DNA of 64,000 nt from Acholeplasmataceae bacterium (GTDB lineage: Bacteria > Bacillota_I > Bacilli_A > Acholeplasmatales > Acholeplasmataceae), in assembly GCA_963675245.1 (NCBI GenBank), contig OY775910.1, positions 128,001 through 192,000 of the forward strand. The letters run 5' to 3'. The translations under genes were made by a program, and so were the position numbers. The notes under the pieces were generated by a model. The model saw only the letters and a program-made list of their open reading frames with translations, ran no database searches and was not told the origin of the DNA. This document shows positions 1 through 16,195 of this stretch, piece after piece. Position 1 is the stretch's first letter; each line of letters opens with the position of its first letter.

Positions 1-1
1 A

Positions 2-370
2 CCCTCTTGCATCCTTTTCAATATCTTGATCGAAATAACCATGAATATTTTTTTTCTGTGGATATATATAGTTATCAAATTCATGTTTCCATCTATCAAC
101 AAAAATATTATAATTTTTCACTTCAATTGTTTTTTGATATTGATAAATATGTCGTAATTCATGAAATATTGTTCTTAGTAATTGATCAATTTCAGCTGAT
201 TCATACCAAGATTCTTTAAATACGATTTTGTAACATTTTAATATAACCGCTGCTATTATCTTTTTATTACTAAAAATAGAGCCTTGGATAATCTCTATAT
301 CTGGTGGCTCTATGTTTAAATCTCTACACCCATAAAGCAAAGCTTCGTAAACAAATTCATCTCTTGTCAT
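2..370 (-). CDS. HEXXH zinc metallopeptidase, ImmA/IrrE-like (truncated by window edge)
   Basis: Not in ORF track; my translation MTRDEFVYEALL...TIFHELRHIYQ...DIEKDARG is open to the edge; AAAGGGG RBS; directly downstream of integrase. Confidence 0.7.
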   Translation of the reverse strand, partial: MTRDEFVYEALLYGCRDLNIEPPDIEIIQGSIFSNKKIIAAVILKCYKIVFKESWYESAEIDQLLRTIFHELRHIYQYQKTIEVKNYNIFVDRWKHEFDNYIYPQKKNIHGYFDQDIEKDARG

Positions 371-406
371 AATTTTATTCCCCTTTATATTATTTTTTGA
401 GATTTT

Positions 407-1279
407 TTATGCGGGTAGATTTATATACTTGTCGTAATCTCTTTTTACCTTTCTAAAACTAACATCAATATAGTTCCTAGTCATCTCGATTGACTCATGA
501 CCAAGTAATACTTGAATACTTGCTAAGCTTGCACCATTTTCATGAAGTTTAGTTGCGAATGTTCTTCTAAACATATGCACATGTAGCTTATCAAATCCAA
601 GCTTTTCATTCATTCTTCTGAGAAATAGCTTGATATCGTTGTAATTCATTGGTCTATCCTTCAACTGATTATAGAAGAGATATTCCGATTTTTCTTTATT
701 GATTTCAATTAATTTTTGAACTTTAGTTGCTGAAAGCTTTGTAAATAAGACAAATCGTTCCTTTTTGTTCTTTGTGACTTCCAACAGAATATTTCTTACA
801 TCCATATCAACGTTCTTGATCTTAATGTTCAATAACTCGTTGATTCTGCATCCAGTATCTAGAAGCATATAAATGACAGTCTTATATGTAAACGAGTTTG
901 TAGAAAAATTCATTTTGCTGATATACGTACCAATTTCCATCAATTCTGTTTCTGTTAAAATCGGATAATGTCTTTTAACTACTCTAAGTTTCTGCATGTC
1001 TTCCAAATATTGATTGCGAATCCTAAAATGTCTCATAATGCGTTTAAATAGTCCTATATTGTGGTTTATAGAGATATTCTTACAACTTGTTTCATCCTTA
1101 TAATAAATGACCATTTCATCTAGTTTATCTTCTGTTAACTGATTTGTATCAGTTACTTCAAGATATTTAAAACATCGTTCGAGACTTGCGACACACCTAA
1201 TTTCATACAAATGCGTTGCTGGAATCTTGTAAACATTTGAATACTTCATATAATCCTTAAACATTTTTTCTAGTTTCAT
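407..1279 (-). CDS. Tyrosine recombinase/integrase
   Basis: TGCRINE, HMFRRTFAT, LLGH and TRNY give the R-H-R-H-Y catalytic set. Confidence 0.95.
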   Translation of the reverse strand: MKLEKMFKDYMKYSNVYKIPATHLYEIRCVASLERCFKYLEVTDTNQLTEDKLDEMVIYYKDETSCKNISINHNIGLFKRIMRHFRIRNQYLEDMQKLRVVKRHYPILTETELMEIGTYISKMNFSTNSFTYKTVIYMLLDTGCRINELLNIKIKNVDMDVRNILLEVTKNKKERFVLFTKLSATKVQKLIEINKEKSEYLFYNQLKDRPMNYNDIKLFLRRMNEKLGFDKLHVHMFRRTFATKLHENGASLASIQVLLGHESIEMTRNYIDVSFRKVKRDYDKYINLPA

Positions 1280-1300
1280 CTTAATGCCCTCCCTGTATAG

Positions 1301-1516
1301 TTATAAATTGATAACGAATGATCTAACCAAAATGAATAAGATGATCATCATTAAAAGCACTATGAATCCAAGCGGTGTTAGAGACTCTCTAACGCCTTCT
1401 TTTGCATTTCTGATAGCACCAGTTAACCTCGGTACCATCCCAAACAAGAAAATCAATAAACCAACATTTAGAATTGTTTCCCAATTTTCAACGATAAAGC
1501 CAAAGAAGTCAAACAT
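1301..1516 (-). CDS. Small two-TM membrane protein
   Basis: 71 aa, two hydrophobic segments, coupled to upstream gene. Confidence 0.7.
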   Translation of the reverse strand: MFDFFGFIVENWETILNVGLLIFLFGMVPRLTGAIRNAKEGVRESLTPLGFIVLLMMIILFILVRSFVINL

Positions 1517-3762
1517 TATAATAATAGAATAACTACAACTACTATCACAACAACGAATATCAATGCTAATAATTTCTTTGGATCAGAAATTACTCTAAAT
1601 GTGCTGTTCAATAACTTATCAAAGTTAGGTAATAATCTAATAACTATGACAGCTATAATAACGATTGCGAAAATCATGATGTATGTATTCATAGGACTTC
1701 CTTCTGGTGCTCCCAAATCATCTGATGCATCAAACTGATCTAGAATGTATTCTTCATCAATTGTAATTCGTTGGCCAGAGATTTCATAAACAATATTTGT
1801 GATGTTTGCTGAATTTTCAAATATCTCAACTTCATTATGTGCATCAAATTGGCCAATATGAAGTTTATAAAGTGAATTATTAGTAGTATCAATTTCAATG
1901 GTTTCACCAGCCATTCTGCTATAACTTGCCTCAACTTCATTTGCTAAAGTTGTGCTTGGTATAATTGACTCAATTTCATCAATTTCCTTTTGATTTAAAT
2001 CAAATTCAATAGATGCAGCATTAGCAGCTAATATATAACTACCGACAATTAATGCTGGCCATCTAACACCAGGTATCATCGCACCTATCGTCATTGCGAT
2101 TGGTGTAACAACATACAAGTCTTTTTTCCACTGAGGAGTAGTTAAAGTCGTTTCACCATAATCAAGCGAAATAGCAACCATTTGTGTATCCATGGGATAT
2201 GTGTTCCAAAAGTCTGGAATCCCAATTCTGTAGTATCTGTAATCAAATGTCATATCTACATGAATCAGCTTATCTGAGATAACATCTGGCATATAGAAGT
2301 ACGCATAGATATTTTGAGCATCTTCTAGTTTGAAATAGGTTAATACACTTACTTTCTCAGTTGAAATAATCTCATCTGTGGTTAGATTCCAGTGTACATA
2401 TGGTGCCCAGGCTTTTGTTGCTATAACACCTTCATCCGTTTGTATATAGTCAGGTGTTTCTGCATCATATATGAGTTGTAAAATGCGATTCCCATCATCT
2501 GTAAAATAGATTGCTTTTTTTATACCAATCAAAAAGTCTGTATTGAAGTTTTGATATAGTAGTTCATAACTTTGTCCTTGATAATCAATTGTAATAAGTG
2601 CATCCGTACCATCAACATCGATGTAGGCTAATCCAATTTCTGAAATGTCATTGTATCCAGAACTCGAACCAATGGTTGTAGGTAGATCAGATGGTGTAGT
2701 TGCTACTGTTGCAGAACCACTTTGTTGAAAGTAGATCCTAACATCAGTTACATCTTTATCATCATTAAAATTTAATGAATAGGTTGAACTAAATACTACA
2801 TCATCAAGTATTAAATGACCATTCTCAAACTTTGTTGTTTCAATTTCCCATTGATGAAGGACTGAACTGTAATTTGAGAAAAGTGTCATACCATGATCAA
2901 CAAGTCCGTTATAAATGAGTTCTTCTGTATCATCACGATACCTAACTTCAATAACGAGTTTATTCCAGTCATCACCTGGTTTATAAATTCCCCAAGCAGT
3001 TGGCCACCTGTAATCAAGAAATGAAAATGCACCGTTCAACCATAATTGATTAAAGTGATTTTCATCAACCATCTCTGAAGTATTTATTTCTGAATCATCG
3101 ACATTGTTGTAATAAGTCGGTGCAAAATGTACATAAGCTTTATCACCATCAACAACATGCCACCATGAATCATCAACTGAGATGGGTTCACTTTTTAGTG
3201 AATACGTGTATTCAGTTAAATCGAAGAGAGGAAACAAGCTGATGGCATTGATATCTTTATCGTTTACATAGTCTAAGATCATCGCTTGTTCTGAGGAGGT
3301 AATGGAGGGGTTTAAAACAATCGATATTTCCATGTAATAATTTTGATAAGAAGTCAAGTCAACATACTCGCTTCCATCATCTTCAGTTAATAATAGGTCA
3401 TCATAGTGAATATTACTTTCAACAAAATTAAAAATATTTTCTGGTGTTTCCGAATGAAGTGAAGAATATATTTTTAGAGAGGTTGTTTCTGATTCATAAG
3501 AAAGCTGTGCATACTGATCAAGAATCATAGTGATTGCCCCATATTCATCTGCTTCTTCGATGTCTGTCCAAAGTTCTACACCAAAAGATGAAAAGTTGAT
3601 AGGCAAACGATTAGAAACTAATACATCCACTCCATTTCTAGTTGTCATCTCATAATCCACGTTATATTCGAAAAACGATGGACGATCATATGCATAAGCT
3701 GCATTGAGTCCAATAACAAATGTAAATATGAGTAACAGCATTGTTATCGTAATTTTTTTCAT
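1516..3762 (-). CDS. Large membrane-anchored protein, candidate virion adsorption/entry protein
   Basis: Signal peptide (AYA), acidic ectodomain, internal hydrophobic hairpin, two C-terminal TM segments. Confidence 0.6.
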   Translation of the reverse strand: MKKITITMLLLIFTFVIGLNAAYAYDRPSFFEYNVDYEMTTRNGVDVLVSNRLPINFSSFGVELWTDIEEADEYGAITMILDQYAQLSYESETTSLKIYSSLHSETPENIFNFVESNIHYDDLLLTEDDGSEYVDLTSYQNYYMEISIVLNPSITSSEQAMILDYVNDKDINAISLFPLFDLTEYTYSLKSEPISVDDSWWHVVDGDKAYVHFAPTYYNNVDDSEINTSEMVDENHFNQLWLNGAFSFLDYRWPTAWGIYKPGDDWNKLVIEVRYRDDTEELIYNGLVDHGMTLFSNYSSVLHQWEIETTKFENGHLILDDVVFSSTYSLNFNDDKDVTDVRIYFQQSGSATVATTPSDLPTTIGSSSGYNDISEIGLAYIDVDGTDALITIDYQGQSYELLYQNFNTDFLIGIKKAIYFTDDGNRILQLIYDAETPDYIQTDEGVIATKAWAPYVHWNLTTDEIISTEKVSVLTYFKLEDAQNIYAYFYMPDVISDKLIHVDMTFDYRYYRIGIPDFWNTYPMDTQMVAISLDYGETTLTTPQWKKDLYVVTPIAMTIGAMIPGVRWPALIVGSYILAANAASIEFDLNQKEIDEIESIIPSTTLANEVEASYSRMAGETIEIDTTNNSLYKLHIGQFDAHNEVEIFENSANITNIVYEISGQRITIDEEYILDQFDASDDLGAPEGSPMNTYIMIFAIVIIAVIVIRLLPNFDKLLNSTFRVISDPKKLLALIFVVVIVVVVILLL

Positions 3763-3763
3763 C

Positions 3764-4459
3764 TTAGTGTTTACCTCTTTTTTTTCGTATCTTTGAAATA
3801 ATAAATATTACAACAATCAAACAAACCAGGAAGACAATAACGATGTTATCTGTTACTACTTCCCAAAACGAACTTGTTACAGGACCTTCAATTTCCATGT
3901 CTGGAACGATTTGATTTTCTGGAGAAACTTTGATGTAGGTTGAATATGTCTCTTCTGATCCATTAGTAGATAAAATCCTAAATTCAAATAGATAAATACC
4001 TGGTGTATTTGGATTATCATCATATTGATTTGTAATGACTACAACACTTGATTGAGAGTCGATTAAAAGTTGTTTAGCATTAATAAATGTATTGATAATC
4101 TCGTTGTTTGTGAGGGTTGTATCTTTGTATACATAGATCACATCATCATCCGTAACAGCTATGACGTCTCCAAGGGTTTGCATGACCCGAATAGATACTT
4201 CTTTTGTGTATGTAGCTACACCGATAGTAATTGTGTATAAACCAGGTATGTCACCATATCCAACATAGTTTTCTGATATGACCTCAGGATCCCCAAACTC
4301 TGATGTATATAGTGTGAGGATATTACTGAGGGTTAGAATCTTATCATATTGTTTTTGAATAACTGATGGACCTTCTATGGGTTCTTCAGCTGCAAAAGCA
4401 TGTACAGTGGTGAAGAGGAAAGCCATAGCTATTAAAATTGTAAGTATGACTTTTTTCAT
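3764..4459 (-). CDS. C-terminally anchored exported protein, putative virion protein
   Basis: Signal peptide (AFA), two PG(L/I)Y Ig-like motifs, C-terminal TM plus basic tail. Confidence 0.6.
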   Translation of the reverse strand: MKKVILTILIAMAFLFTTVHAFAAEEPIEGPSVIQKQYDKILTLSNILTLYTSEFGDPEVISENYVGYGDIPGLYTITIGVATYTKEVSIRVMQTLGDVIAVTDDDVIYVYKDTTLTNNEIINTFINAKQLLIDSQSSVVVITNQYDDNPNTPGIYLFEFRILSTNGSEETYSTYIKVSPENQIVPDMEIEGPVTSSFWEVVTDNIVIVFLVCLIVVIFIISKIRKKRGKH

Positions 4460-4470
4460 AGAATCACCCC

Positions 4471-5979
4471 TTAACGTTTTTTACTTGCAAGTAGTGCTAC
4501 CGCAATAACTAAGATAAGGATACCAATCCAGTAATCCTGAATAAATTGAAAAAATTCACTTAATTCTGCATCGGATATATCATCTGGTGTGTCATCAGGA
4601 GTGTCATCGGGTGTATCGTCTGGTGTATCATCAATACCATCTGGTAAATCATTATTGTCAAGCGCTTCACCTGTGGTGGAATCAACAGTTTTGCCATATA
4701 AGACAATATCACCATTTATCACATAAGGTGTTGATCCTTCAAATAAAACGGTATACGTTGAATCTAAATACCAATCTTCTACTTCATAACCATTTTCATG
4801 AGATACACTTGGAATACTCACAGATGATCCAGGTCTATAATATTCAACTTCAGTTTGACCAAAATAATTTAGTGTGAAGGTTACATGTTCATTATCAAAA
4901 ACATCATAATTTGTTAAATATAAGAGAATTTGTTCTGAATCCGAAAATTGAAGTCCAAGTCCAGAACCACTAATCGATACAGTAGAACTTCCTGGAAATC
5001 TAAAGATTTCTACCACTAATGTTGAAGGTAAATCGGGAATATTAACAACTTGTTTAACTTCTCCCCCAATTGTTAGTACTAGAAAATCAAAGTATGTTTT
5101 TCCTGAAGATATAGTGATTTGAGATGGTTCTGCACTGTTTTGTGAGATAATTTGAGGATCAATAAAGTAATAACTATCAGTGTTGGTAATGTATGAACTA
5201 TCTTCAAGTTCGGATAATACAAAATCATGAGTTGCAGCACCTAAAGAAGTGCTGATAGATAATTCATCCGGTAAAACAAATATCCATTTTGCATATAAAT
5301 CTAGATCAGTTTCCAAAATTACATTGAATTCGAATTCATTCTCATATGTGGTTGAAGTATACCAACCACCAAAGGTATAACCTTCTTTTGTGGGTGTTGT
5401 TACAGGACTTGTTACTAATTTATTAGTGGTTGACTCTTGAAAAAGTAACGTTTCATCATCATAGTAATTAATGTTTGATTCGACAATATCACCACTGATT
5501 TCATAAACTTGTAATTGGACAGTGTAATTGATAAATTCACCAAAACCTGTATTTTCTGGAAAACGAATTTTAAGATAGATACCACTACTACCACCGGCAG
5601 TAACATATCGTGTAAATGTTTGATTGTTTATTAAAAATGGTGAGGTGTATGATTGTTCAGAAAGACCCATCACAAAAACTGGAAATTCAGAAGCTCCAGT
5701 TAGTGTCCCTGAAGTATGTGTCAATACAATTTTGTATAAATTATCAGTGATAAAACTAGAATTATATTGATTTATATAAATTTGTGAATATTCAATGGTT
5801 TCAGTATATGAGCCATTTAGTGTAATATATTCACCATCAAAACTATAAGATACTGATTCATCAATGGTATCAGATTCAGCATTTAATGTTATTAGTGTCT
5901 CAGTTTCAGCAGCAAAAGTTGTGGTTGTAGAAATCGTGACAGCTATTAAGAGTAAAAATGTGATTAGGAATTTTTTCAT
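4471..5979 (-). CDS. Surface protein with InlB B-repeat (Listeria-Bacteroides repeat) domains
   Basis: PTKEGYTFGGWY...DLDLYAKW plus a second degenerate copy; DDTP linker; C-terminal TM. Confidence 0.75.
   Translation of the reverse strand: MKKFLITFLLLIAVTISTTTTFAAETETLITLNAESDTIDESVSYSFDGEYITLNGSYTETIEYSQIYINQYNSSFITDNLYKIVLTHTSGTLTGASEFPVFVMGLSEQSYTSPFLINNQTFTRYVTAGGSSGIYLKIRFPENTGFGEFINYTVQLQVYEISGDIVESNINYYDDETLLFQESTTNKLVTSPVTTPTKEGYTFGGWYTSTTYENEFEFNVILETDLDLYAKWIFVLPDELSISTSLGAATHDFVLSELEDSSYITNTDSYYFIDPQIISQNSAEPSQITISSGKTYFDFLVLTIGGEVKQVVNIPDLPSTLVVEIFRFPGSSTVSISGSGLGLQFSDSEQILLYLTNYDVFDNEHVTFTLNYFGQTEVEYYRPGSSVSIPSVSHENGYEVEDWYLDSTYTVLFEGSTPYVINGDIVLYGKTVDSTTGEALDNNDLPDGIDDTPDDTPDDTPDDTPDDISDAELSEFFQFIQDYWIGILILVIAVALLASKKR
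4579..4632. repeat. Imperfect 12-bp tandem repeat encoding (DDTP)x4
   Basis: DDTPDDTPDDTPDDTPDD in translation. Confidence 0.85.
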
Positions 5980-5999
5980 AAGATGCTCCTTTTTGTTTT

Positions 6000-6490
6000 G
6001 TAGTTCCCCTACGGGTCGGGCTATACGGCTTACTTAATCGCAGATTAAGAACGCTCTTCTATCCCTAACTTAAGTGTTTAAACGTTGCAAGCAACCATTA
6101 AACACTAAATTGGTAGTCTAATTCAATGAATATTACATATTCATAGAATTAAATGACTGGGAAAATTAATTATATCGATAAAAATTTATATCAATAAACT
6201 TCTAATATTTTGTTTTTTGATTAAAAAATACAGAAAACTGCATTCGGTTAACCATTGCAAGCAATCGATAACCTGTATCTTGATGACTTAATTAAGAGAA
6301 TATAAATATTCTCCTAATTAATAAAGAAATTTTTTTATCAAAGTTATATACCTTTCAGGACTTATTCCATGGTACATTGACATTTGGTTCCGATTTATCG
6401 ATTTTTGAAAGGCTACCGGCAAAAGGTATGTGATCCTTTTGCCTTTCTTTTGGGAATAATCGATATCACCAAATGTCAATGTCTTTCACG
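6000..6490. other. Structured non-coding intergenic region (candidate ssDNA origin/packaging signal/terminator)
   Basis: Several hairpins including perfect 15-bp IR ACATTGACATTTGGT 6374-6388 / 6468-6482 enclosing GGCAAAAGG/CCTTTTGCC. Confidence 0.6.
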
Positions 6491-6506
6491 GCATAATATA
6501 TAACTT

Positions 6507-6764
6507 TTAGTGTCGGTTTCTAAGATAGCGTCTAGCAAATAATAGAAACGTGAATACAGCTACGACGAGTAAATAGAAAGCTGCATTATCAACGAATGTC
6601 GTGTTAAGCTGTGTAAACCAATCGACAAATTTAAACCAGACAGTTTCATTTGCGATAGCATCTGCACTCACTGTTATCATCGGCACAAATACGATACCTA
6701 AGACCATAACTACCACTAAAGCGATAACGACATTAATAAGTTGATTTCTTGTTTTTTTTGACAT
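6507..6764 (-). CDS. Procoat-like small membrane protein (candidate major virion protein)
   Basis: Leader ending ADA, ~49-aa mature part with amphipathic helix, TM and basic tail RRYLRNRH; strong AAGGAG RBS; followed by large hairpin. Confidence 0.55.
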   Translation of the reverse strand: MSKKTRNQLINVVIALVVVMVLGIVFVPMITVSADAIANETVWFKFVDWFTQLNTTFVDNAAFYLLVVAVFTFLLFARRYLRNRH

Positions 6765-6777
6765 GTTGTAATTCTCC

Positions 6778-7287
6778 TTAAGTTAAATTGTTAGAAATGT
6801 AGTAAACCTTTAATATGCCAATTTTGGCATCTTTTGTAATTTCATATAAACCATCTAGTTCATATAAATATCCTTCTTGAATTGCATCATATAAGAATTC
6901 GACATTTATGTTCATGAACCATGATTTAGGCACTTCTGTGAGAATGAAATTTAGTACTTCATCTTCACAATCAAAGTATTTTTGATTGAATACAGTCAAG
7001 TCTGAAACATCAAATTGTTGATACATTTTATCAATGAGGATTGTTTCAAGTTTGATTTCTTCAATCATTTTTTGTTTGGCAAGCATCGTGTATTGGAAAT
7101 ATATAATTGCAATGACGCCAAATAAGATTAACGTTGCTAGTCTAATTAACGCGATTGCATCAATTTGAGAAACACGATTGAGCAAATCTACTAGATCGAC
7201 TAATAATGTTATTTCATACAACACTAAGATTGCTATTAAGATATATTCATATCTTGATGATTTTACATATTTTGCTGTTTTATTCAT
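6778..7287 (-). CDS. Hypothetical membrane protein
   Basis: Two N-terminal TM segments; start placed at MNKTA after GGAG. Confidence 0.65.
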   Translation of the reverse strand: MNKTAKYVKSSRYEYILIAILVLYEITLLVDLVDLLNRVSQIDAIALIRLATLILFGVIAIIYFQYTMLAKQKMIEEIKLETILIDKMYQQFDVSDLTVFNQKYFDCEDEVLNFILTEVPKSWFMNINVEFLYDAIQEGYLYELDGLYEITKDAKIGILKVYYISNNLT

Positions 7288-8443
7288 TTTCTTCTCCAAG
7301 GTATTCTTTTAAGTTTTTTATTGTATCTGATATGTCTTCTAAATTAATTTTTTTATTTCCATTATTTTCTCTGTAGTTGTTAATCATTGCTACATCTTGG
7401 GGTTTCAGTTCTTCTAAACCAGATAGCACATTTCTCATCATGTAATCCATAAAACTTTCATTACCATCAAATCCCGCATAGAATGCAGCATTCACTTTTT
7501 TTAATGATCGTTTATACCATGACTTTCTTTTTTCGATAGTTGTTTCTACACGATGTTTTACGTTTAAATCAATTTTCTCAACACTTTCCAGAAAAGCTAA
7601 CCAGCGATCGTCGGTTTTCCATCTACTAACTTGATGGTTATTTTTATTTGGCTGTTTCAGATCTAAACAGTTAATCAAGAGTTCTCTAGCATAAGTCATA
7701 AATTGAGCTGAGTTGTTCTCCTGAATTGAAACTGCATATATTTGCGTAACTGCATCAGCTTTTTCATTAACGAATCTCATTTCATATCGGTACCAAATAT
7801 CAGTATCTAGATCTGGTTCATTTCTTGCATTTCGTTCAAGTCTTTTATCATAAATCTGAAGTTGATTTGAACCCGCGCTACCAAGGGTAATCGTAAAACC
7901 TTCTGATATAACTAGATTGCTGCTATATCTTTCAGTGAATTGATAATTAATTTTTCTAAATGGACTCACAAAATGTTTGTTCCTCAAAATAGGTTCAATG
8001 TCGTAAATATCAATTTGTTCTCCATCAAAATCATCAATCGCAATATCAATTCTTTTAAAGCTAGCATCTTGTTCAATGAGAAAGGATAATAATTTAGTCC
8101 AATTGCCATCAAGAAAATTTTCAAATTCTCTACAAGCTTGGCCACTCATGAGTAGATTTATAGAATATCTACCATTTGCATTTTTAGTGTGTTCACCTCC
8201 GAAAAGTATTTTAATGTGTTCGCCTATTACATAGGCATTGGTATATCCTCTGACAGATTGTCCTATAGGTAAATTAAGATAACTGTCATGAAATCCTAGT
8301 AACTGAATAAAGTTGGTAAATAGATTCATATCACCAGATAATTGATACAAATTTTTGCTTGCTATGTGTACATCGACAAAATCCATTGAAACGGATAAAA
8401 AGTCAATCAGAACGCGTTTTTTAAGTTTCCGTTTTTCTATCAT
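7280..8443 (-). CDS. Rep_trans-family rolling-circle replication initiator
   Basis: RIDIAIDD, TITLGS...QIYDK (catalytic Tyr), WYRYEMRF motifs. Confidence 0.9.
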   Translation of the reverse strand: MIEKRKLKKRVLIDFLSVSMDFVDVHIASKNLYQLSGDMNLFTNFIQLLGFHDSYLNLPIGQSVRGYTNAYVIGEHIKILFGGEHTKNANGRYSINLLMSGQACREFENFLDGNWTKLLSFLIEQDASFKRIDIAIDDFDGEQIDIYDIEPILRNKHFVSPFRKINYQFTERYSSNLVISEGFTITLGSAGSNQLQIYDKRLERNARNEPDLDTDIWYRYEMRFVNEKADAVTQIYAVSIQENNSAQFMTYARELLINCLDLKQPNKNNHQVSRWKTDDRWLAFLESVEKIDLNVKHRVETTIEKRKSWYKRSLKKVNAAFYAGFDGNESFMDYMMRNVLSGLEELKPQDVAMINNYRENNGNKKINLEDISDTIKNLKEYLGEENE

Positions 8444-8454
8444 TGCACTTAGTC

Positions 8455-8476
8455 AGGGGGTGTTACTACACCCCCT
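8455..8476 (-). promoter_or_regulatory. Putative double-strand origin/nick hairpin
   Basis: Perfect AGGGGGTGT-tact-ACACCCCCT hairpin just upstream of rep; minus strand reads GTAACA at the loop, like Rep_trans/MOBT nic hairpins. Confidence 0.6.
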
Positions 8477-8482
8477 CGCTAA

Positions 8483-8668
8483 TCATCGTTGCTCTTTCTC
8501 AGATATTTCATTGAATTGTTCAACTATTTTTTTCACATAGTTATCATTCAATTTCTGCTGCTTTTTGATGAAAGCATTAAATCGAGCAATGATGAATAAG
8601 TAATCGAGGACTAAGACGATTAAAATTGCAATAAGTATGATTCGTATTTCGTCAGAAGTTAATGTCAT
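8483..8668 (-). CDS. Small single-TM protein
   Basis: 61 aa, N-terminal TM, overlaps ATPase end, GGTGGTG RBS. Confidence 0.6.
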   Translation of the reverse strand: MTLTSDEIRIILIAILIVLVLDYLFIIARFNAFIKKQQKLNDNYVKKIVEQFNEISEKEQR

Positions 8669-9971
8669 CTACACCACCACCCATCATGTCTTCATCTTTG
8701 AAGTAGCCGGGATTAAAATACCAATTGATTTCTGATGACTTTGTCTGTGTAGCTGCAAGCAATTCATTTTGGATAATTCTGTAGAAATGAGTATCATATG
8801 TTCCAAAACAATACATAGTAGGTATGTGAAAGATTAGTTTGTCATAATAGATTGAGTCTCTTTTTTTGACATCCTCTTCTGATGCGTAGTTCCAAATTTC
8901 ATATTTGTTAAATCCAATAGATATAAGGAACCATTTGATGTGCAATAATTTATTAAGGATTTTTCTTTCAACATTTACAGTTTCAAAATAATGTTTCGTG
9001 TAATCTTCATAGGTTGTTTCTTTTGAAATCGTGTTTAATATTTTTTTGAGGAGGTAAGGAATGAAAAGTCTAAATAATTTGTATACACTAAATGAGAATG
9101 CAATAAATAAATTGATTAATTCAAATGTGAAATTGTAATTGCCTACTACTTTTATTGGTTTTGGTAACCATAAATTTGATTGTGTTAAAGATCTAAATTT
9201 CTTGATTTCATCTCTAACATCTTGCTTGGTTGTAATCATCCGGTTTCGTTCCTGGTGTATTTGACCAAACTTTCTACGATAATCTTTATCTCCAGCCTCT
9301 TCTTTTACATCTTCATAACGTTTATTTGCACCTATTTCATCAGACGCTTCATCAATGAGTTCGATCATGTAGTCATATATCGAATAATCTTTCAGAGCGT
9401 ATGCATCATGAATTTTTTGTTGCTCGATTTTATAATTGAAATTAAATGAAAATGTTACATGTGAATAAAAGTTTGTTTTGGAGTGAACATAGTTTTTTCT
9501 GAAGTTTAAAACCCAATATGCAAAGATATAATCTTGAAATTGTTCTTTAGATTTTTTTGATGTAATAAAATTTAATATGAGTGATTGGTTTATTTTTTGG
9601 TTTTTGATTTCTTTTAATGTTTTTTCATAGATGTATTGAAATTCTATAGTTTCATTTTTTTTGAAGTATTCATCAAGAAGTTTATTGATAATTGAAAAAT
9701 CTAATTTGTTATAAATTATCATAATTTCTGAAAGTAATAATTTTAATTTTTCTTCTATTTCAATTTGGTAGATATGACTTAACCCAGATTGAAAGCTTGT
9801 TTTGCCTGTTCTAATCGCTCCATTAATGGAGATTAGAAAACCAAGTAAAGAAGCTTTAATTTTGGATGCTTCATATTTATGATTAAGATATCCCCGATGT
9901 ATTGTAATTGAAACGAGAGGTACTATTATTATTGAGTCAATGATTAGTAAAAGGATAATTATGCTACTCAC
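8652..9971 (-). CDS. Membrane-anchored P-loop ATPase, Zot/pI-like morphogenesis protein
   Basis: N-terminal TM, Walker A GAIRTGKT, Walker B IELIDEA; GGAGG RBS. Confidence 0.7.
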   Translation of the reverse strand: MSSIIILLLIIDSIIIVPLVSITIHRGYLNHKYEASKIKASLLGFLISINGAIRTGKTSFQSGLSHIYQIEIEEKLKLLLSEIMIIYNKLDFSIINKLLDEYFKKNETIEFQYIYEKTLKEIKNQKINQSLILNFITSKKSKEQFQDYIFAYWVLNFRKNYVHSKTNFYSHVTFSFNFNYKIEQQKIHDAYALKDYSIYDYMIELIDEASDEIGANKRYEDVKEEAGDKDYRRKFGQIHQERNRMITTKQDVRDEIKKFRSLTQSNLWLPKPIKVVGNYNFTFELINLFIAFSFSVYKLFRLFIPYLLKKILNTISKETTYEDYTKHYFETVNVERKILNKLLHIKWFLISIGFNKYEIWNYASEEDVKKRDSIYYDKLIFHIPTMYCFGTYDTHFYRIIQNELLAATQTKSSEINWYFNPGYFKDEDMMGGGVDDINF

Positions 9972-10026
9972 TTAGTACCTCCGCTTCATTCATTCATACT
10001 ATGGGGGGGACACATGAATGATTTTT

Positions 10027-10554
10027 TTAAAATTCGATATCTTCTGAATCTACTTCCTTAGAAATTGTATCTGGTCTATGTTCCCACTTGATTTTAAGCA
10101 ATTTCTTTTCTTCTAGATTCTCTAATAAACGTTGTTGATCGTAACTTAAGAAGTGTGTAATATATAACCCTTTTTTGAAAATTATTTCTATAGATTTATA
10201 TTCACCTTCCATGTTCGAGTAGGACCCAGTTACAAACCGAACTGGAACATTTCTATTCCATTCAGTAAGATCCCTACCTTTTTTGTCTTCAAGCTCAAGT
10301 CCTACTTCCAAAATAATTAGATTGAATAATTCGTTTGAAATAAAATCTTTCGGACCACCAGCTCTAAGATTTAATTGTCTTAAGAACTTGTTATGGAGGT
10401 TAAGATAGATAGATGCCATCTCTCTGCCATTACGATAAACCTTTGTAAATTTGACCGGATACTTTTCAAGTTTTGATACAATTGGTGCTGTTAAATCACT
10501 GAGTTTTACAAATTCTGGTACTTTTTTGGTTTCTTTTGTCTCTGTTGTTGCCAT
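10027..10554 (-). CDS. Hypothetical protein, first gene of provirus operon (possibly ssDNA-binding)
   Basis: AAAGGAG RBS, basic body with acidic tail DSEDIEF; function inferred from position only. Confidence 0.6.
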   Translation of the reverse strand: MATTETKETKKVPEFVKLSDLTAPIVSKLEKYPVKFTKVYRNGREMASIYLNLHNKFLRQLNLRAGGPKDFISNELFNLIILEVGLELEDKKGRDLTEWNRNVPVRFVTGSYSNMEGEYKSIEIIFKKGLYITHFLSYDQQRLLENLEEKKLLKIKWEHRPDTISKEVDSEDIEF

Positions 10555-10714
10555 TTTTATTTCTCCTTTTTGTTTTTTGTTGTATACTTAATTCGGAAGC
10601 ATCCTTCTCGGCTTTTGAGCCAATAAGAGTTTTGTACTCATAGGATTGCTTCTTTTTTTGACTTGTCACTACTAAAGATATATAATCAAACTGTATTGAT
10701 GAAAGGATGATTTT

Positions 10715-10897
10715 ATGCCAAAAGATAAACCTATTTATATTGATCCTATACATGTGATTGATGGATGCCCTGAATTAAAACCAACAAACTACACTCATGT
10801 TTCCATATCAGATTCTATGCATATCAGAGATGGTGAAGGTAGTGTAGTAGAACTATCCGAATTTGAAGTAGTCAGTGGTGAATTAGAAGATAAATAG
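10715..10897 (+). CDS. Small acidic hypothetical protein
   Basis: GAAAGGA RBS before ATG; divergent from the main operon. Confidence 0.4.
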   Translation: MPKDKPIYIDPIHVIDGCPELKPTNYTHVSISDSMHIRDGEGSVVELSEFEVVSGELEDK

Positions 10898-10937
10898 AAC
10901 TATTGACATTTAGTTTTATCTGAAGTAATATTGAGTC

Positions 10938-11006
10938 ATAGCAATTGATTTTATCGGTCGTAGGGAATCGTAACCTACCAGCTAATAGAATTGATTGCTT
11001 TTTTTT
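10938..11006 (+). ncRNA. Candidate ~70-nt countertranscript RNA
   Basis: TTGACA(10903)-17-TAATAT(10926), then stem GCAATTGATT/AATTGATTGC with inner GTAGG/CCTAC, then T8. Confidence 0.5.
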
Positions 11007-11186
11007 ATGGAGAGATTCGCCACTGGATGGATCTATCCAGAGACGAATCATTTCCTATTCAGTTGTCAAAGATCGTGACGGTTCCTTTTTGAAAACAAAA
11101 AACGAACCTACTAATAGATCCGTTGCTTACTTTAATTTTATGACCTTTTTTTACTCGAAATCCGTTAATTATAACTGGGACCCAAA

Positions 11187-11233
11187 GACTCTTAATCAGT
11201 GGGTCTACGGTTCGATCCCGTAAGGGGGTACCA
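11187..11233 (+). repeat. att repeat 1: 3' half of tRNA-Lys(CTT)
   Basis: GACTCTTAATCAGTGGGTCTACGGTTCGATCCCGTAAGGGGGTACCA: anticodon loop CTT, T-arm TACGG-TTCGATC-CCGTA, CCA; no 5' half upstream. Confidence 0.92.
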
Positions 11234-11305
11234 TATTACAATAAGACGAATCTTGAGCAAAGCATAACACCCAAGATATGCTCCGTGACATTTCATCACA
11301 CATCT

Positions 11306-11334
11306 ATGATAAAACAATAAATTTGCTTTGTCAA
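11306..11334 (-). promoter_or_regulatory. Leftward sigma-70 promoter facing att1
   Basis: Minus strand TTGACA-17-TATCAT; same hexamers and spacing in cassettes 2 and 3. Confidence 0.75.
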
Positions 11335-11354
11335 TAAGAAAGGAGCATTTTAAA

Positions 11355-11567
11355 ATGCACAAGTTAAAAAAGATTCGTACTGATAAGGGTTTATCACAAA
11401 CCCAGGTTGCTAAGATTCTAGGTGTTGATAGAAGCTCAATATCTAACTATGAGAGAGGGACAAGGAAACTTGATCAAGATCAAATAGTTGCATTAGTCAA
11501 GGCTTTGAATACAACAGCTGATTACTTCCTAGGACTGTCTGAGACCGAAAAGAAAGAGCAACATTAA
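11355..11567 (+). CDS. XRE-family HTH repressor, copy 1
   Basis: LKKIR..KGLSQTQVAKILGVDRSSISNYERG; AAAGGAG RBS before ATG 11355. Confidence 0.92.
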   Translation: MHKLKKIRTDKGLSQTQVAKILGVDRSSISNYERGTRKLDQDQIVALVKALNTTADYFLGLSETEKKEQH

Positions 11568-11618
11568 ATTGCTCTTTTTTTATTAAATTGATTTATATAA
11601 TCTAAAATTTTGTTTGTC

Positions 11619-12170
11619 TTATACGATTTCTTCAAAATATTCTTCATTTGTTTTAGTATCCGAGACAGCATTGAAAATAAAAGTAAATACTGAATCCTCA
11701 TCAAATTCATTTTCAATACCCTCTAGTGAAGCTGATAAAATATAATCAAAAAATAATTCTATGGATTCTTCTTTTAATTTATATCCAAATTGTTTCATTG
11801 TTAATATTGCACTAATATAATTAATAATAACCTCATTATTAAAGCAGTTATATTTGCGTACTTTTTCAAATACAGTTAGTTTATTATTTTGAAATACATC
11901 AATAATTTGTTCTGGTGATAAACATTTATTCATGTAAAATTCTAAAATGTCTACTAACTCTTTATCAGCTAAAACTTTAGATTTAATAGTTTTTATACCA
12001 GTTATTATTTCATCAGTTGTTTCATTATATTTTTCATTATGATGCCAATAATAATTTAGTATAAATTCCATATATGCAAAACATCCTTCTGAATTTTCCG
12101 ATATAAATTTATTATAATCTAAAGATAATTTAAATCTACGTGCTCTAAATTGGTTAAGTTCGTATAACAT
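11619..12170 (-). CDS. Hypothetical protein (cassette 1 cargo)
   Basis: 183-aa ORF with AGGGG RBS; no motif recognised. Confidence 0.6.
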   Translation of the reverse strand: MLYELNQFRARRFKLSLDYNKFISENSEGCFAYMEFILNYYWHHNEKYNETTDEIITGIKTIKSKVLADKELVDILEFYMNKCLSPEQIIDVFQNNKLTVFEKVRKYNCFNNEVIINYISAILTMKQFGYKLKEESIELFFDYILSASLEGIENEFDEDSVFTFIFNAVSDTKTNEEYFEEIV

Positions 12171-12199
12171 ATTCTTTGTTCCCCTATTATTATTCTTTT

Positions 12200-12496
12200 T
12201 TATTTTCTTATAATGTTTTTTATTTTATCTTTGTAAACCATAAGATCTGGATACTTCTCATTTGTATATTTATATAAACCATTTATTATCAAATCAATAC
12301 TAATTGATCTTAAGCTACTCTTTAAATAATCTAAATCATGATGATCTTCAGAAAGATATTCCAGCATCATTTTAAATAAATTTATAAAAGTCTCTGCAAT
12401 TGGATCAGCTATTCCCTTGCCTTGTTTTAAAAAATAATAATGTGCTGTATTACTATTAAAAGAATTCAGTAATTCTAATGCATTAGTTCTAGACAT
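12200..12496 (-). CDS. Hypothetical protein (cassette 1 cargo)
   Basis: 98-aa ORF, AAAGGA upstream. Confidence 0.5.
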   Translation of the reverse strand: MSRTNALELLNSFNSNTAHYYFLKQGKGIADPIAETFINLFKMMLEYLSEDHHDLDYLKSSLRSISIDLIINGLYKYTNEKYPDLMVYKDKIKNIIRK

Positions 12497-12630
12497 TTAA
12501 TATTTTTATTCCTTTCGTTATTTTATCAAAGATAGATTCTTACAATTTGTGTTCACTTTATTGATTTATATAAATGGTTATACGCTTAATCATCAAGATT
12601 CATCATCAAATTCATTAATTTCATAAGCTA

Positions 12631-13452
12631 TTAATATTTATCTCTTTTCCCTTTGTTGCATCTCTCACACAAAGTTTGAAGATTGTCATCTGTTGACTTT
12701 CCACCTTTTGATACAGGCTTAATATGGTCAACTTCCAAACGAACTCCAGCGGCAGCTGTCGCCCCACAAATGCAACACCTGAAACCATCTCTTTTCATTA
12801 TCTCGTAACGTTTATCATCTGAAAGAATAGCGCGTTGTTGTTGTATAAATGTCATTTTTCCTTCTTTTTCCAACGCCACTCGATAACATTCTAAAATATC
12901 ACTAAACTCGTATCTTTCATTTCTATCATAGTCACCATACTGCGATGTTGCCATTAAATGCAATATAACACTTGGAAATCGTGGGTCATAAGTTTTTTTG
13001 CTAAGCAACTCTTCTTCATACTTTTTAAGTTCTTTAAATCTATTTTCGGTTGTCGATCCAAAATTTTTGGCAAACCAATTTCTATTATCATGAGGTGCAG
13101 TTGAGATATCCTTATAAAGTCTCTTTACCTCAAAAACCTTTAAAACTTTCTTTTTATATTCATTAAATATCATAAAAATATCAATGTATTTATTAACTAA
13201 TGATTTGTAAATTATCATCTCTCCAAATATTTTCCCAGATAAATATGCTTTAAAGTCAAACGAACTACCAAAAATGAATGAACCACCGAAATATGATTTC
13301 CCATATTTTGCTTTACTTGTGCGTTTTTCGTATTTTATCGGTTCTACTTTTATAGCATCAAAATTATAGTTGTTGTATTTTTTGTTAATCGTCTCAATTT
13401 CCAGCCACATTATATTATTTCTTATGCTTGTTTTTGCATCTTTAAATTGCAT
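12631..13452 (-). CDS. HNH endonuclease domain protein
   Basis: C-terminal CCICG...LEVDHIKPVSKGG...NLQTLCERCN. Confidence 0.88.
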   Translation of the reverse strand: MQFKDAKTSIRNNIMWLEIETINKKYNNYNFDAIKVEPIKYEKRTSKAKYGKSYFGGSFIFGSSFDFKAYLSGKIFGEMIIYKSLVNKYIDIFMIFNEYKKKVLKVFEVKRLYKDISTAPHDNRNWFAKNFGSTTENRFKELKKYEEELLSKKTYDPRFPSVILHLMATSQYGDYDRNERYEFSDILECYRVALEKEGKMTFIQQQRAILSDDKRYEIMKRDGFRCCICGATAAAGVRLEVDHIKPVSKGGKSTDDNLQTLCERCNKGKRDKY

Positions 13453-13725
13453 ATTGTCTCCATTTGAACATATAAATTTTCATATGTATTTCTTCAATAA
13501 GATTTTGAAAATGGTACATTACTTATTAATAGTATACTATTTTTATGGATTAATTTATAATGTTAATTTGTCTATCAAAATATTTTAACACTCACTAATT
13601 ATACATCTTACTAATAACCTTTTGCTTTATCAAAGGACTAAAATATGAAATATAAAGTAAAGACTAATAATTAGTTTTTTGTATAACTATTCTATCAATG
13701 TTGTAAAAATGAAATATGGAAAAGT

Positions 13726-14682
13726 TTATTCTTTTACATCAGTAAATGGTGGGTTAAACAATCTCATTTCTGATGTTGGACCATCATTTGAAATCTCTAA
13801 TTTTTCATTTAAATGACCATGTAATATTTCAGAAGCAATTTCTCTTATCTTTTCGAAGGGTTCCCCAAGAACATCATAATAGTTATCAAAAATTTTAATT
13901 AAGTCATCAATTATGTTCGTTTCAAAGTAAATATGTTGAAGATATTGAATATCAGAAGAAAAATAATCGTTATCCATCCATGAATAACCATGTAATAATA
14001 ACTCTCTTATTTTTTTATGCATTTCAATATCTATGTTCCACGAAAAACCTCGGCCATAAATAGTTTTACTAATCATTGTTTTTTCAGCATATGTTATATG
14101 AAATGAATATCCTGAATCAATAATTATTTTTGGAAACATGTGAAATACATTACCACTATATGTCTTTAAATCATAATAAATTGAAATATTAGGTCCTCTT
14201 TGTCGTGGATCAAATAAATATCCAATGGTTTTTTTAGTGTAATCAAATTCGGAATTGAGTTCTTTATAATCTAGATACAGTTTGTAAGGTTTATTTAGAG
14301 CGACTATTTCTGTAGACAAGCAACTAAACAATTCTTTTAAATAACTCGTATAAGTGTCATTACTAATGTAATATTTTCCTATAGATTTTGAATAATCATT
14401 AAATCTTTGTATTTTATTTTCCCACAAGATCATTTCTGTCTTTTTTAAGTTTTCTAATTTTTCAAAATCATATTCATTTGGAATGAAAATCTCCAATTCA
14501 TCATCTGGCTTATTTTGATTTTGCTCCCAACAATCATCACATAGCCAATATCTATGTCTTTTAAATTCTCTCATGATAGACTGATGCCTTTGAGAAAAAG
14601 TGTTTGATGAAACCAAAACATCTGCATTGTATCGTCTACTACAAATCTTACAAATTCTTGTATCGGGTAAATACATTGGCAT
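13726..14682 (-). CDS. Hypothetical protein with N-terminal CxxC...CxxC
   Basis: CKIC and CDDC; starts 1 nt after the sigma factor stop. Confidence 0.65.
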   Translation of the reverse strand: MPMYLPDTRICKICSRRYNADVLVSSNTFSQRHQSIMREFKRHRYWLCDDCWEQNQNKPDDELEIFIPNEYDFEKLENLKKTEMILWENKIQRFNDYSKSIGKYYISNDTYTSYLKELFSCLSTEIVALNKPYKLYLDYKELNSEFDYTKKTIGYLFDPRQRGPNISIYYDLKTYSGNVFHMFPKIIIDSGYSFHITYAEKTMISKTIYGRGFSWNIDIEMHKKIRELLLHGYSWMDNDYFSSDIQYLQHIYFETNIIDDLIKIFDNYYDVLGEPFEKIREIASEILHGHLNEKLEISNDGPTSEMRLFNPPFTDVKE

Positions 14683-14683
14683 C

Positions 14684-15586
14684 TCATATCACCTTTTTTA
14701 ATTTTTTGATTGCTCTACTTTGAATCTGTCTAACTCGTTCTCTAGATATTCCAAATAAGTCTCCAACTTCTCCTAGAGTTTTTTCATCATAATCTATGCC
14801 AAATCTCATTTTAATAATTGCTTGTTCTCGTCTATCTAAAACTTGTAAGATATCATCCACAAATTCATCAAGCTCTTTTTCATTATTGTATTCTTCTGGA
14901 TTCTTATTTTTCTTGTCTTCTGTGAAATCTAGAAGTCTGGAATTATCTTCTCCTACACTTTGATCTAAAGATATCGCATCATCACTACACAAATAAACTA
15001 TCTTTAATGACGGTATTGATATATTTGTTAATTTTGAAACTGTTTCAATATCGGGTTCTACACCATTTTCTTTTATATATTTAATAGTCGCTTTTTTAAT
15101 AATAGCTAATGAATCATATATATGTACTGGAATCCTAATTGTTCTAGCTGTATTAGAAATTGACCTTGAAATGAATTGTCTAATCCACCAAGTTGCATAT
15201 GTTGAAAGTCTGTATCCTTTTTCAACTTGAAATCTGTCTATAGCTTTCATCAAACCCATATTTCCTTCTTGAATAAGATCCATCATGGGAACATTCGTAT
15301 ATCTATATTTCTTAGCTATATTCACTACCAATCTTAAATTTGAAACAACCAATTTATCTCTGGCTTCTTTTCCAAGTTCTATAATTTTTTCATCTTTAGA
15401 TTTACGAGCTGCCAATACTTTACCAGCAAGTTCAATTTCTTCTTCCTTAGTCAGTAATCGAATTTTACCAATATCCTTTAAATATACACTTAAAGAATCA
15501 TTTAAATTAACTAGATCTTTTGAATTTATTAATTCTGTATCCGATCCTTCTAATTCATGATTGTTCAATACATTTTTCGATTTCAA
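14684..15586 (-). CDS. RpoD-like sigma-70 factor lacking region 1.1
   Basis: YLKDIGKIRLLTKEEE (1.2), DLIQEGNMGLMKA and STYATWWIRQ (2), ISRERVRQI (4.2); TTG start after GGGAG. Confidence 0.92.
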   Translation of the reverse strand: MKSKNVLNNHELEGSDTELINSKDLVNLNDSLSVYLKDIGKIRLLTKEEEIELAGKVLAARKSKDEKIIELGKEARDKLVVSNLRLVVNIAKKYRYTNVPMMDLIQEGNMGLMKAIDRFQVEKGYRLSTYATWWIRQFISRSISNTARTIRIPVHIYDSLAIIKKATIKYIKENGVEPDIETVSKLTNISIPSLKIVYLCSDDAISLDQSVGEDNSRLLDFTEDKKNKNPEEYNNEKELDEFVDDILQVLDRREQAIIKMRFGIDYDEKTLGEVGDLFGISRERVRQIQSRAIKKLKKVI

Positions 15587-15815
15587 ATAGTTTCTCCCAA
15601 TCTATTTTTATTTTTGTATCTCTTAACATACGAATTATACATAGCTAAAAAACTTTGTCAAGGGGTGTATTTTAAAAAATTTTTTGATAATACATAAATT
15701 AATTCTCCCCCAGAAATGCATTGATGTCTATATATTTATTATACACTGCACAAGTATATAAAAAAAGCACTTAAATAAGTGCAATAATTAACTAATTAAT
15801 TTGTAAAACTTCCTA

Positions 15816-15861
15816 ACTCTTAATCAGTGGGTCTACGGTTCGATCCCGTAAGGGGGTACCA
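15816..15861 (+). repeat. att repeat 2 (tRNA-Lys 3' half)
   Basis: 46 bp identical to repeat 1 from ACTCTT to CCA. Confidence 0.92.
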
Positions 15862-15933
15862 AAATACAATAACGAGACTTAAGCAAAGCATTACTCCGCG
15901 AAGAGTTGCTCCGTGACATTTCATCACACATCT

Positions 15934-15962
15934 ATGATAAAACAAAACATTTGCTTTGTCAA
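15934..15962 (-). promoter_or_regulatory. Leftward promoter facing att2
   Basis: Minus strand TTGACA-17-TATCAT. Confidence 0.75.
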
Positions 15963-15982
15963 TAAGAAAGGAGCATTTTAAA

Positions 15983-16195
15983 ATGCACAAGCTAAAAAAG
16001 ATTCGTACTGATAAGGGGTTATCACAAACCCAGGTTGCTAAAATTCTAGGTGTTGATAGAAGCTCAATATCTAACTATGAGAGAGGGACAAGGAAACTTG
16101 ACCAAGATCAAATAGTTGCATTAGTCAAAGCTTTAAATACAACAGCAGATTACTTCCTAGGATTGTCAGAAACCAATGAAAAAGGACAGAAATAA
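15983..16195 (+). CDS. XRE-family HTH repressor, copy 2
   Basis: First 64 aa identical to copy 1. Confidence 0.92.
   Translation: MHKLKKIRTDKGLSQTQVAKILGVDRSSISNYERGTRKLDQDQIVALVKALNTTADYFLGLSETNEKGQK

Follow-up and report, generated by a model that had tools for sequence, protein, structure and literature searches.

Organization of the element and its integration site

The window analysed here is a stretch of 64,000 nt of DNA from an Acholeplasmataceae bacterium (GenBank assembly GCA_963675245.1, contig OY775910.1), corresponding to positions 128001-192000 of a genome that forms a single contig of 1,626,300 nt. As shown in Table 1, its first 11,233 nt encode a tyrosine integrase, a Rep_trans rolling-circle initiator, a membrane-anchored P-loop ATPase, a protein of 85 aa (p85) and three exported, anchored proteins of 502, 231 and 748 aa (p502, p231 and p748), all of which had been listed in an earlier note made from the sequence alone. 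Every gene of the element in the window is located on the minus strand, and the order of transcription is p175, ATPase, p61, Rep_trans, p173, p85, a palindrome-rich gap, p502, p231, p748, p71 and integrase. These genes belong to an element that is probably a temperate provirus of 17.3 kb of the Plasmavirus L2 kind, inserted by its tyrosine integrase into the 3′ half of the tRNA-Lys(CTT) gene of an Acholeplasma-like wall-less bacterium.

The element is bounded by exact direct repeats of 46 nt with a spacing of 17,259 nt. The left repeat (genome 121883-121928) is located within a complete tRNA-Lys(CTT) gene (121853-121928), 6.1 kb to the left of the window. In the genome the 46-mer is present in six copies, all in one orientation; the first is that within tRNA-Lys and the others begin at window positions 11188, 15816, 18905, 21502 and 23764, the last with two mismatches. 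No complete tRNA was detected in the window by ARAGORN, the copy at 11188-11233 being partial. Because copies of the repeat sit at these two places, the element is taken to extend from tRNA-Lys to window position 11233, with 6.07 kb outside the window. The earlier note had placed the ends at positions 1 and 11233; the right one coincides with the end of the exact repeat, while the left one has to be moved outward to the repeat in the tRNA gene. The left part of the element (genome 121929-128000) contains an XRE repressor gene adjoining the tRNA and genes for two unknown proteins, GmrSD, a DUF6996/6997/7226 protein and a D12 adenine methyltransferase. An open reading frame (ORF) for a SprT-like protein spans the left window edge.

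The left flank is about 70% identical in 9/9 genomes of the genus and the right flank is not conserved, so that no empty site can be defined in the relatives. Two other genomes of the genus contain an extra copy of the tRNA-Lys 3′ half, G115 (region C1:191496-204843, copy 13 kb from the tRNA) and G139 (region C1:443580-448529, copy 4 kb from the tRNA), so that elements seem to land at tRNA-Lys(CTT) repeatedly. In G115 an ATPase of the L2 ORF3 type lies between tRNA-Lys and the extra copy.

All conserved genes of the element are full length and the ORFs are intact. No terminase, portal, tail, capsid, lysin or other lysis gene and no VirB4 gene was found in 17 ORFs scanned with Pfam and PHROGs, consistent with the lack of terminase, portal, tail, lysin and VirB4-sized genes remarked on in the earlier note. 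A promoter scan gave fewer sites than in shuffled sequence.

Relationship to phage L2

The Plasmaviridae have one sequenced member, phage L2, and its genome (L13696) was compared locally with the genes of the element. The integrase matched L2 ORF5 (35% over 287 aa, E 4e-46), residues 394-679 of p748 matched ORF1 (26%, E 1e-22), p231 matched ORF14, a putative envelope protein (26%, E 7.5e-20), and the XRE protein at the left end matched an unannotated minus-strand ORF of L2 at 5063-5266 (47%, E 8e-16). p85 matched both halves of L2 ORF12 weakly by BLASTP (29% and 39%, E 0.001 and 0.002). Read from the tRNA, the element contains att, XRE, a cargo slot, integrase, a protein with two transmembrane segments (2-TM), an ORF1-like protein, an ORF14-like protein, the protein in the spike slot and an ORF12-like small membrane protein; the series p85, p502, p231, p748, 2-TM, integrase, XRE and att parallels L2 ORF12, 13, 14, 1, 2, (3, 4), 5 and XRE. 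Because five genes are homologues of L2 genes in the order of L2, the element is considered an L2-related provirus. The plasmavirus half of the layout proposed in the earlier note is borne out by the same matches, that of p85 being weak.

L2 is an enveloped, temperate phage that leaves the cell by budding, and published work already places related proviruses in Acholeplasma tRNA genes (PMC12662186), so that the undescribed lineage suspected in the earlier note is only partly right. The L2-related proviruses are known already; what differs here is the presence of Rep_trans, an unnamed ATPase and p175 in place of L2 counterparts. Together with p61 these occupy the place of the early region of L2 (ORF6-11), with the ATPase instead of L2's ORF3. 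A homologue of ORF3 was found in 26/301 genomes of the order and in none of the host genome's sequence, and the element contains no homologue of ORF10 or ORF11; DnaA boxes were not searched for. Replication of L2 starts at two DnaA-box origins and relies on the host replisome, and of the L2 genes only the integrase is common to other known viruses (PMC12662186).

The family of p748 was detected in 13/14 related ATPase loci within the stretch fetched, the exception being a contig of 6.5 kb, and in 35/301 genomes of the order. Among 50,697 phage records, p748 matched the two L2 records only. The 502-, 231- and 748-aa proteins have signal-like N-termini and C-terminal hydrophobic anchors, membrane segments being judged by eye and with a crude hydrophobicity script. 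No Pfam match was obtained for the ATPase, p175, p748 or p231, and PHROGs gave nothing decisive. p502 is a candidate receptor-binding spike, and Flg_new proteins fill the ORF13 slot in 5/10 L2-type proviruses.

The N-terminus of p85 is basic and leads into a signal-like hydrophobic segment; an aromatic ectodomain, another hydrophobic segment and a tail that is again basic complete the protein. Its PHROGs match is "virion structural protein" (E 0.0095). In L2-type proviruses this architecture and position recur in proteins of about 80-105 aa, which have 16-28% identity and no invariant column. The procoat-like description in the earlier note fits the architecture of p85; by position it is the counterpart of L2 ORF12, and the ORF12 units are the nearest to it.

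Several observations were made on L2 itself. ORF3 (2278-3216, annotated "unknown") encodes a membrane-anchored P-loop protein with a hydrophobic N-terminal part, a Walker A motif (GGGKS) and a Walker B motif (LDEF). In the product of ORF4 (3230-3715) a hydrophobic segment at the N-terminus is combined with a Rho_N DNA-binding domain (E 1.2e-9), and the protein could on this account be a tether from membrane to DNA. A sequence like a tRNA 3′ end, ending in CCA, is located at about 5386-5430 on the minus strand, directly upstream of the XRE ORF. Because a tRNA-like end followed by XRE forms an att-XRE unit as in the element, the annotation of a putative attP at 5029-5053 probably has the wrong place.

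Table 1. Features of the element in the window (coordinates are window positions).
Feature	Position	Strand	Remarks
SprT/DUF3920-like putative metallopeptidase, last cargo gene	2..370	-	runs 49 nt past window start; 139 aa in genome
Tyrosine integrase, 290 aa	407..1279	-	PF00589 E 2.1e-38
p71, 71 aa, two hydrophobic segments, at L2 ORF2 position	1301..1516	-	homologues in 3 related loci
p748, exported, C-terminally anchored large membrane protein, L2 ORF1 homologue	1516..3762	-	
p231, exported, C-terminally anchored, L2 ORF14 homologue	3764..4459	-	
p502, exported, anchored, Listeria-Bacteroides repeats, in L2 ORF13 slot	4471..5979	-	Flg_new E 6.4e-20
Non-coding stretch, 527 nt	5980..6506	.	four near-perfect palindromes I1-I4, arms 12-19 nt
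p85, small membrane protein, counterpart of one L2 ORF12 unit	6507..6764	-	weak support
p173, membrane protein	6778..7299	-	
Rep_trans rolling-circle initiator, pT181/RepD type	7280..8443	-	PF02486 E 8.5e-33
p61, small hydrophobic protein between ATPase and Rep genes	8483..8668	-	
Membrane-anchored P-loop ATPase of unnamed family, 439 aa	8652..9971	-	hydrophobic N-terminus; Walker A GAIRTGKTS; Walker B IDEASDE
p175, conserved, just upstream of ATPase	10027..10554	-	acidic C-terminal tail with F as last residue; 8 related loci have homologues
Leader region between p175 and attR	10555..11187	-	candidate ORFs: 85 aa at 10496-10753, 59 aa at 10872-11051
attR	11188..11233	+	46-nt copy of tRNA-Lys(CTT) 3′ half, anticodon loop to CCA; identical to genome 121883-121928

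The rolling-circle initiator

The rolling-circle Rep named in the earlier note was confirmed by its PF02486 match and by a Rol_Rep_N domain (31.2 bits vs a cut-off of 23.7). Among PDB sequences only the Rep of a Geobacillus plasmid was matched (4CIJ, E 4.8e-13). Y198 and the blocks RIDIAIDD, IYDK and WYRYEMR are invariant in 8/8 Rep homologues, IYDK being the putative block of the catalytic Tyr. The best NCBIfam match was MobT, at 65.6 bits vs a cut-off of 600 (E 3.5e-18). Since the Rol_Rep_N domain and the 4CIJ match are present and MobT is far below its cut-off, we regard the protein as a plasmid-type initiator and not a MobT relaxase. Its nearest relatives in phage records include GenBank inoviruses (23-28% identity). 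The palindrome-bearing stretch between p502 and p85 is a candidate replication origin or regulatory region.

The membrane ATPase and p175

With a cut-off of E<=0.001, the family of the ATPase counts 197 representatives in a set of 1.84 billion proteins, and the ATPase was found in 19/301 genomes of the order. G56, K57, D207 and E208 are invariant in 33 sequences. No match was detected in Pfam, PHROGs or NCBIfam, nor in 50,697 phage records (tblastn), 72,556 plasmid records or IMG/VR, and the relatives form 36 clusters, none with a Pfam domain. Pfam Zot was touched weakly by 2/64 ATPase relatives (best E 7.3e-4) and not by the ATPase of the window. A profile of 33 sequences gave 0 matches to PDB sequences at E<=10, and one of 64 sequences matched Walker-A stretches only.

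An AlphaFold2 model of the ATPase (pLDDT 75.8) was compared with 48,161 PDB representatives. The top match was the N-terminal domain of Neisseria Zot (2R2A, Z 9.5, next row 8.4), with a root-mean-square deviation of 3.9 and 165/191 residues aligned; a second comparison gave 2R2A at Z 10.1 and the next row at 8.7, the deviation being 3.7-3.9 over the two comparisons. TcpA (Z 7.6), VirB4 (6.8-7.3) and FtsK (6.9) ranked lower. The model thus gives modest support to a Zot-like fold, only 1.1-1.4 Z above generic RecA-like folds. A grouping of the ATPase with conjugative coupling proteins, which the earlier note had named as the sign of an integrative mobilisable element (IME), was not found, TcpA, VirB4 and FtsK all lying below Zot, and the predicted fold does not support a coupling protein. 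Pfam matched no FtsK/TraG-type coupling protein, with or without VirB4, in any of the 17 ORFs. Foldseek against the PDB gave nothing at E<=0.001, the ESM Atlas gave no usable match, and BFVD gave one unnamed protein (E 7.8e-4) with named Zot rows at E 0.17 and 1.1. A relationship of the ATPase to L2 ORF3 was tried with hhalign and rejected: the probability was 0.2-0.7% against the single ORF3 sequence and 17% against a profile of seven ORF3 sequences, the latter over only 20 columns round Walker A.

p175 was modelled with AlphaFold2 (pLDDT 84.8) and gave no match in the fold search (best Z 3.2); rows of Pur-alpha and PC4 folds at Z 2.5-2.7 were too weak for use. Its acidic tail with a terminal Phe recalls the tails of single-stranded DNA-binding proteins, which is a lead and not a result. 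p175 is a candidate DNA-binding or packaging partner of the ATPase.

Related loci with ATPase and Rep genes

Fourteen ATPase loci from relatives were mapped with our own ORF caller and BLAST clustering (E 1e-5). Group 1 contains the element of the window, seven loci and the contig of 6.5 kb, which is cut inside Rep. Its gene order is p175, ATPase, small membrane protein, Rep_trans, ORF13-like, ORF1-like, 2-TM, integrase, XRE and tRNA, and in five of the group-1 relatives a tRNA and a partial direct repeat bound 11.8-16.4 kb (Cys, Lys, Gly, Gln and Gly tRNAs). Group 2 contains six loci in which an ATPase of the same family directly follows the ORF1-like gene, in the place of L2's ORF3. The initiator of this group matches PF23343 REP_ORF2-G2P (E 1.7e-14), and its nearest relatives in phage records are GenBank inoviruses. 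A rolling-circle Rep was therefore present in 15/15 ATPase loci, in two unrelated types (Rep_trans and G2P-type). Ten L2-type proviruses, which contain the ORF3-type ATPase, showed no BLAST match to either Rep, to the ATPase of the element or to p175, and no Pfam Rep family was found among the 49/71 of their unassigned ORFs that were scanned. Homologues of ORF10/ORF11 are present in 5/10 of these proviruses.

The counts of loci are not independent, because related genomes share features by descent; despite this shared descent the ATPase is paired with two different Rep families. The L2 envelope module thus travels with at least three replication set-ups, that of L2 itself, Rep_trans and the G2P-type, and both rolling-circle set-ups are always accompanied by the distinct unnamed membrane ATPase.

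Homologues of the integrase occur in seven related loci. p71 has homologues in L029 (36%, E 1.6e-11), L027 and L028; with L2 ORF2 it has size, position and two hydrophobic segments in common and no BLAST similarity. A small membrane ORF is also found at the position of p61 in L027-L030 (family F12) and L032. p173 has no Pfam or PHROGs family and no homologue in the related loci at E 1e-4, and the small ORFs of the leader region have no Pfam or PHROGs match. The SprT-like ORF has weak Pfam matches to DUF3920 (E 1.9e-5, below the cut-off) and SprT-like (E 0.01). Many relatives (L028, L029, L030, L033, L034 and the L2-type loci L058 and L059) encode within the structural block a trypsin-like serine protease (about 250 aa, Trypsin_2 E 1.1e-13) whose N-terminal part includes a hydrophobic segment, and the element of the window is without it.

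Host, cargo and neighbouring att segments

No MraY (PF00953) or PBP transpeptidase (PF00905) was found in the host genome, which is 99.96% complete; the same searches found MraY in 12/14 and PBP transpeptidase in 10/14 control genomes. Relatives of the ATPase are named Acholeplasma hippikon, Acholeplasma sp. and Acholeplasmataceae. Both results support the wall-less host proposed in the earlier note. The host strain appears to have been sequenced from culture.

The cargo slot is located between the XRE and integrase genes, and in relatives it holds methyltransferases and other genes. Here it holds GmrSD (type IV restriction), the DUF6996/6997/7226 protein beside the D12 adenine methyltransferase, these two likely forming a restriction-modification pair, and a lipoprotein.

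Four segments of 4.6, 3.0, 2.6 and 2.2 kb follow the provirus at window positions 11234-23809, each bounded by the 46-nt tRNA-Lys half. An intact XRE gene stands at the start of each of the first three, and segments 2 and 3 encode identical XRE proteins. The copy of the unit in the fourth segment is only 75% identical, and none of the four encodes an integrase. Besides several exported proteins without a known family, these segments encode a sigma-70 factor, an HNH nuclease and an AAA_14/DUF4143 ATPase. The segments may have arisen by decay of earlier proviruses, of which they would be attL-side remnants, or they may be cassettes flanked by att that the integrase of the provirus could move.

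Mobility and alternative readings

Neither a circle junction nor an empty-site junction was found in the assembled contigs of four runs (two samples, one study). Contig joints, such as that from 1327 to 18387 (L047 coordinates), fall in repeated att-XRE units and give no sign of excision or of circles. There was no circular metagenomic contig, the six metagenome loci being fragments of 1.8-7.5 kb, no terminal overlap in three whole contigs, and no match in IMG/VR. At 17.3 kb the element is also larger than L2 (12 kb), p502 has no similarity to L2 ORF13, the label "envelope protein" of L2 ORF13/14 is putative in the L13696 record, and the roles proposed for the ATPase and p175 are putative. All these points weigh against a provirus of the L2 kind.

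In a second sample with the same organism label (run X4), 38% of the sampled words of the element were found, without differences. The element contigs of this run are short, with a depth of 2.5-6.1, and the depth of the tRNA bin is 672. This signal may come from a minority subpopulation with the element, or from carry-over between samples.

The lack of any detected particle or circle would fit an integrative mobilisable or plasmid-like element that is not a virus and is transferred by cell contact or in unspecific vesicles. On that reading Rep_trans would serve as plasmid initiator or MOB_T-type relaxase, coupling would be the task of the ATPase, and the anchored proteins would be surface proteins of the host. 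Rep_trans proteins include MobT relaxases, MobT heads the NCBIfam matches of this Rep, the trio of integrase, Rep_trans and anchored ATPase resembles Firmicutes IMEs, and TcpA, VirB4 and FtsK are among the fold matches of the ATPase. However, the MobT score falls far short and the initiator has the domain and the PDB match of a plasmid Rep. No type IV coupling protein family is among the matches listed for 64 ATPase relatives (25 of the 44 Pfam families touched). The ATPase was not found in the plasmid records, and in 13/14 relatives, all but the 6.5 kb contig, it is linked to homologues of L2 structural genes. We consider such an element unlikely.

A defective or domesticated provirus remnant, which no longer excises and is kept for its defence cargo and surface proteins, is unlikely to the same degree. 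The element heads the tandem array of four integrase-less att-XRE segments, which resemble decayed copies, it contains a large cargo insertion, and a stop codon is located inside the ATPase gene of one relative (G049). Against this, none of its conserved genes is shortened, the two att repeats do not differ over their 46 nt and Rep has intact catalytic blocks.

An inovirus- or plectrovirus-like filamentous phage extruding naked filaments of single-stranded DNA (ssDNA), with the ATPase as pI/Zot, p85 as major coat, p175 as a gene-V-like ssDNA binder and the large anchored proteins in a pIII-like role in adsorption, is the least probable reading and would agree with the top rank of Zot in both fold comparisons, the weak Pfam Zot matches of two ATPase relatives, the procoat-like architecture of p85, the PF23343 match of the group-2 Rep and the occurrence of the closest Rep_trans and G2P-type Reps among GenBank inoviruses, including one that has a recombinase gene too, but the next fold rows are close behind Zot, the ATPase of the window has neither a Pfam Zot match nor a PDB sequence match by profile, tblastn found nothing in phage records that should include plectroviruses, and the large proteins and, weakly, p85 are homologous to genes of the enveloped L2 and not to those of any inovirus. 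The inovirus half of the layout in the earlier note is not shown, with no Pfam Zot match and no phage-record match for the ATPase.

Proposed cycle of the provirus

For a temperate provirus of the L2 kind, the integrase would excise a circle at the 46-nt core. Rep would nick an origin, perhaps in 5980-6506, and the circle would be copied by rolling circle. p502, p231, p748 and p85 would be inserted in the cell membrane, and the anchored ATPase, perhaps with p175, would bring the genome to the budding site. Enveloped particles would then leave the cell without lysis, as reported for L2. In the lysogen, the cargo would give protection against other phages.

Comparison with known systems

Like the element, L2 and L2-type proviruses contain an integrase, an XRE gene by a tRNA-derived att and ORF1-, ORF14- and ORF12-like proteins, and L2 agrees with it further in gene order, in structural genes on one strand and in a wall-less host. 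Unlike L2, the element contains Rep_trans, an unrelated P-loop ATPase, p175 and a cargo of 6 kb, and is without homologues of ORF3, ORF10 and ORF11. The spike slot is of the Flg_new type in the element and of the Ig-like type in L2 (ORF13).

MOB_T IMEs of Firmicutes also combine a tyrosine integrase, a protein of the Rep_trans superfamily and a membrane ATPase. In the element, by contrast, the Rep is of plasmid type, the ATPase is not a recognisable coupling protein and the linked genes are homologues of L2 structural genes. Among the Tubulavirales, inoviruses and plectroviruses, with the integrase-encoding metagenomic "Dulem" and "bajarodino" viruses, resemble the element in a Rep of the Rep_trans or G2P type, in the Zot-like fold modelled for its ATPase, in a small protein with procoat-like architecture and in non-lytic release, which is proposed for the element. 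Unlike these phages, the element is larger, encodes three large anchored proteins homologous to L2 genes, and its ATPase shows no pI/Zot membership at the sequence level.

Phage L172 was described in 1985. It is an enveloped Acholeplasma phage with a circular ssDNA genome of about 14 kb and no sequence, and its DNA was reported not to hybridise with that of L2 (PMC13375369). L172 resembles the element in its Acholeplasma host, in an enveloped, non-lytic lifestyle, which for the element is expected from its genes, and in a size within the range of 11.8-17.3 kb. An ssDNA genome such as that of L172 would need a rolling-circle Rep, as the element has. With L172 unsequenced, the link is a hypothesis only, and we hold it possible but doubtful that the elements with ATPase and rolling-circle Rep are L172-like phage genomes, in which budding particles of the plasmavirus type package circular ssDNA. 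The membrane ATPase would then pass the displaced strand on to the bud as a motor or gate, a role like that of pI in inoviruses, and p175 would coat or escort this strand. A literature search whose coverage stopped short of the online chapter from the ICTV found nothing that joins plasmavirus, rolling-circle and Acholeplasma, or Acholeplasma and Rep_trans, and nothing that links ATPase and Rep elements with L172. The element may be the first sequence clue to unsequenced enveloped ssDNA phages of wall-less bacteria.

Pleolipoviruses have a conserved block made up of membrane structural proteins and a putative NTPase, interchangeable replication modules including a rolling-circle Rep, and genomes of ss or ds DNA of 7-17 kb; they have no genes in common with plasmaviruses (PMC7547991). 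The likeness of the alphapleolipoviruses of haloarchaea to the element is one of genome logic only; no homology was found, and no search aimed at it was made. If the L172-like hypothesis is true, plasmavirus-like viruses would, like pleolipoviruses, join one envelope module with interchangeable replication modules and ss or ds DNA. For the enveloped ssDNA phage L172 the element would offer a concrete candidate sequence; it would also stand as a parallel, in bacteria, to the pleolipoviruses and give a testable model for the loading of DNA into the bud by a virus without a capsid.

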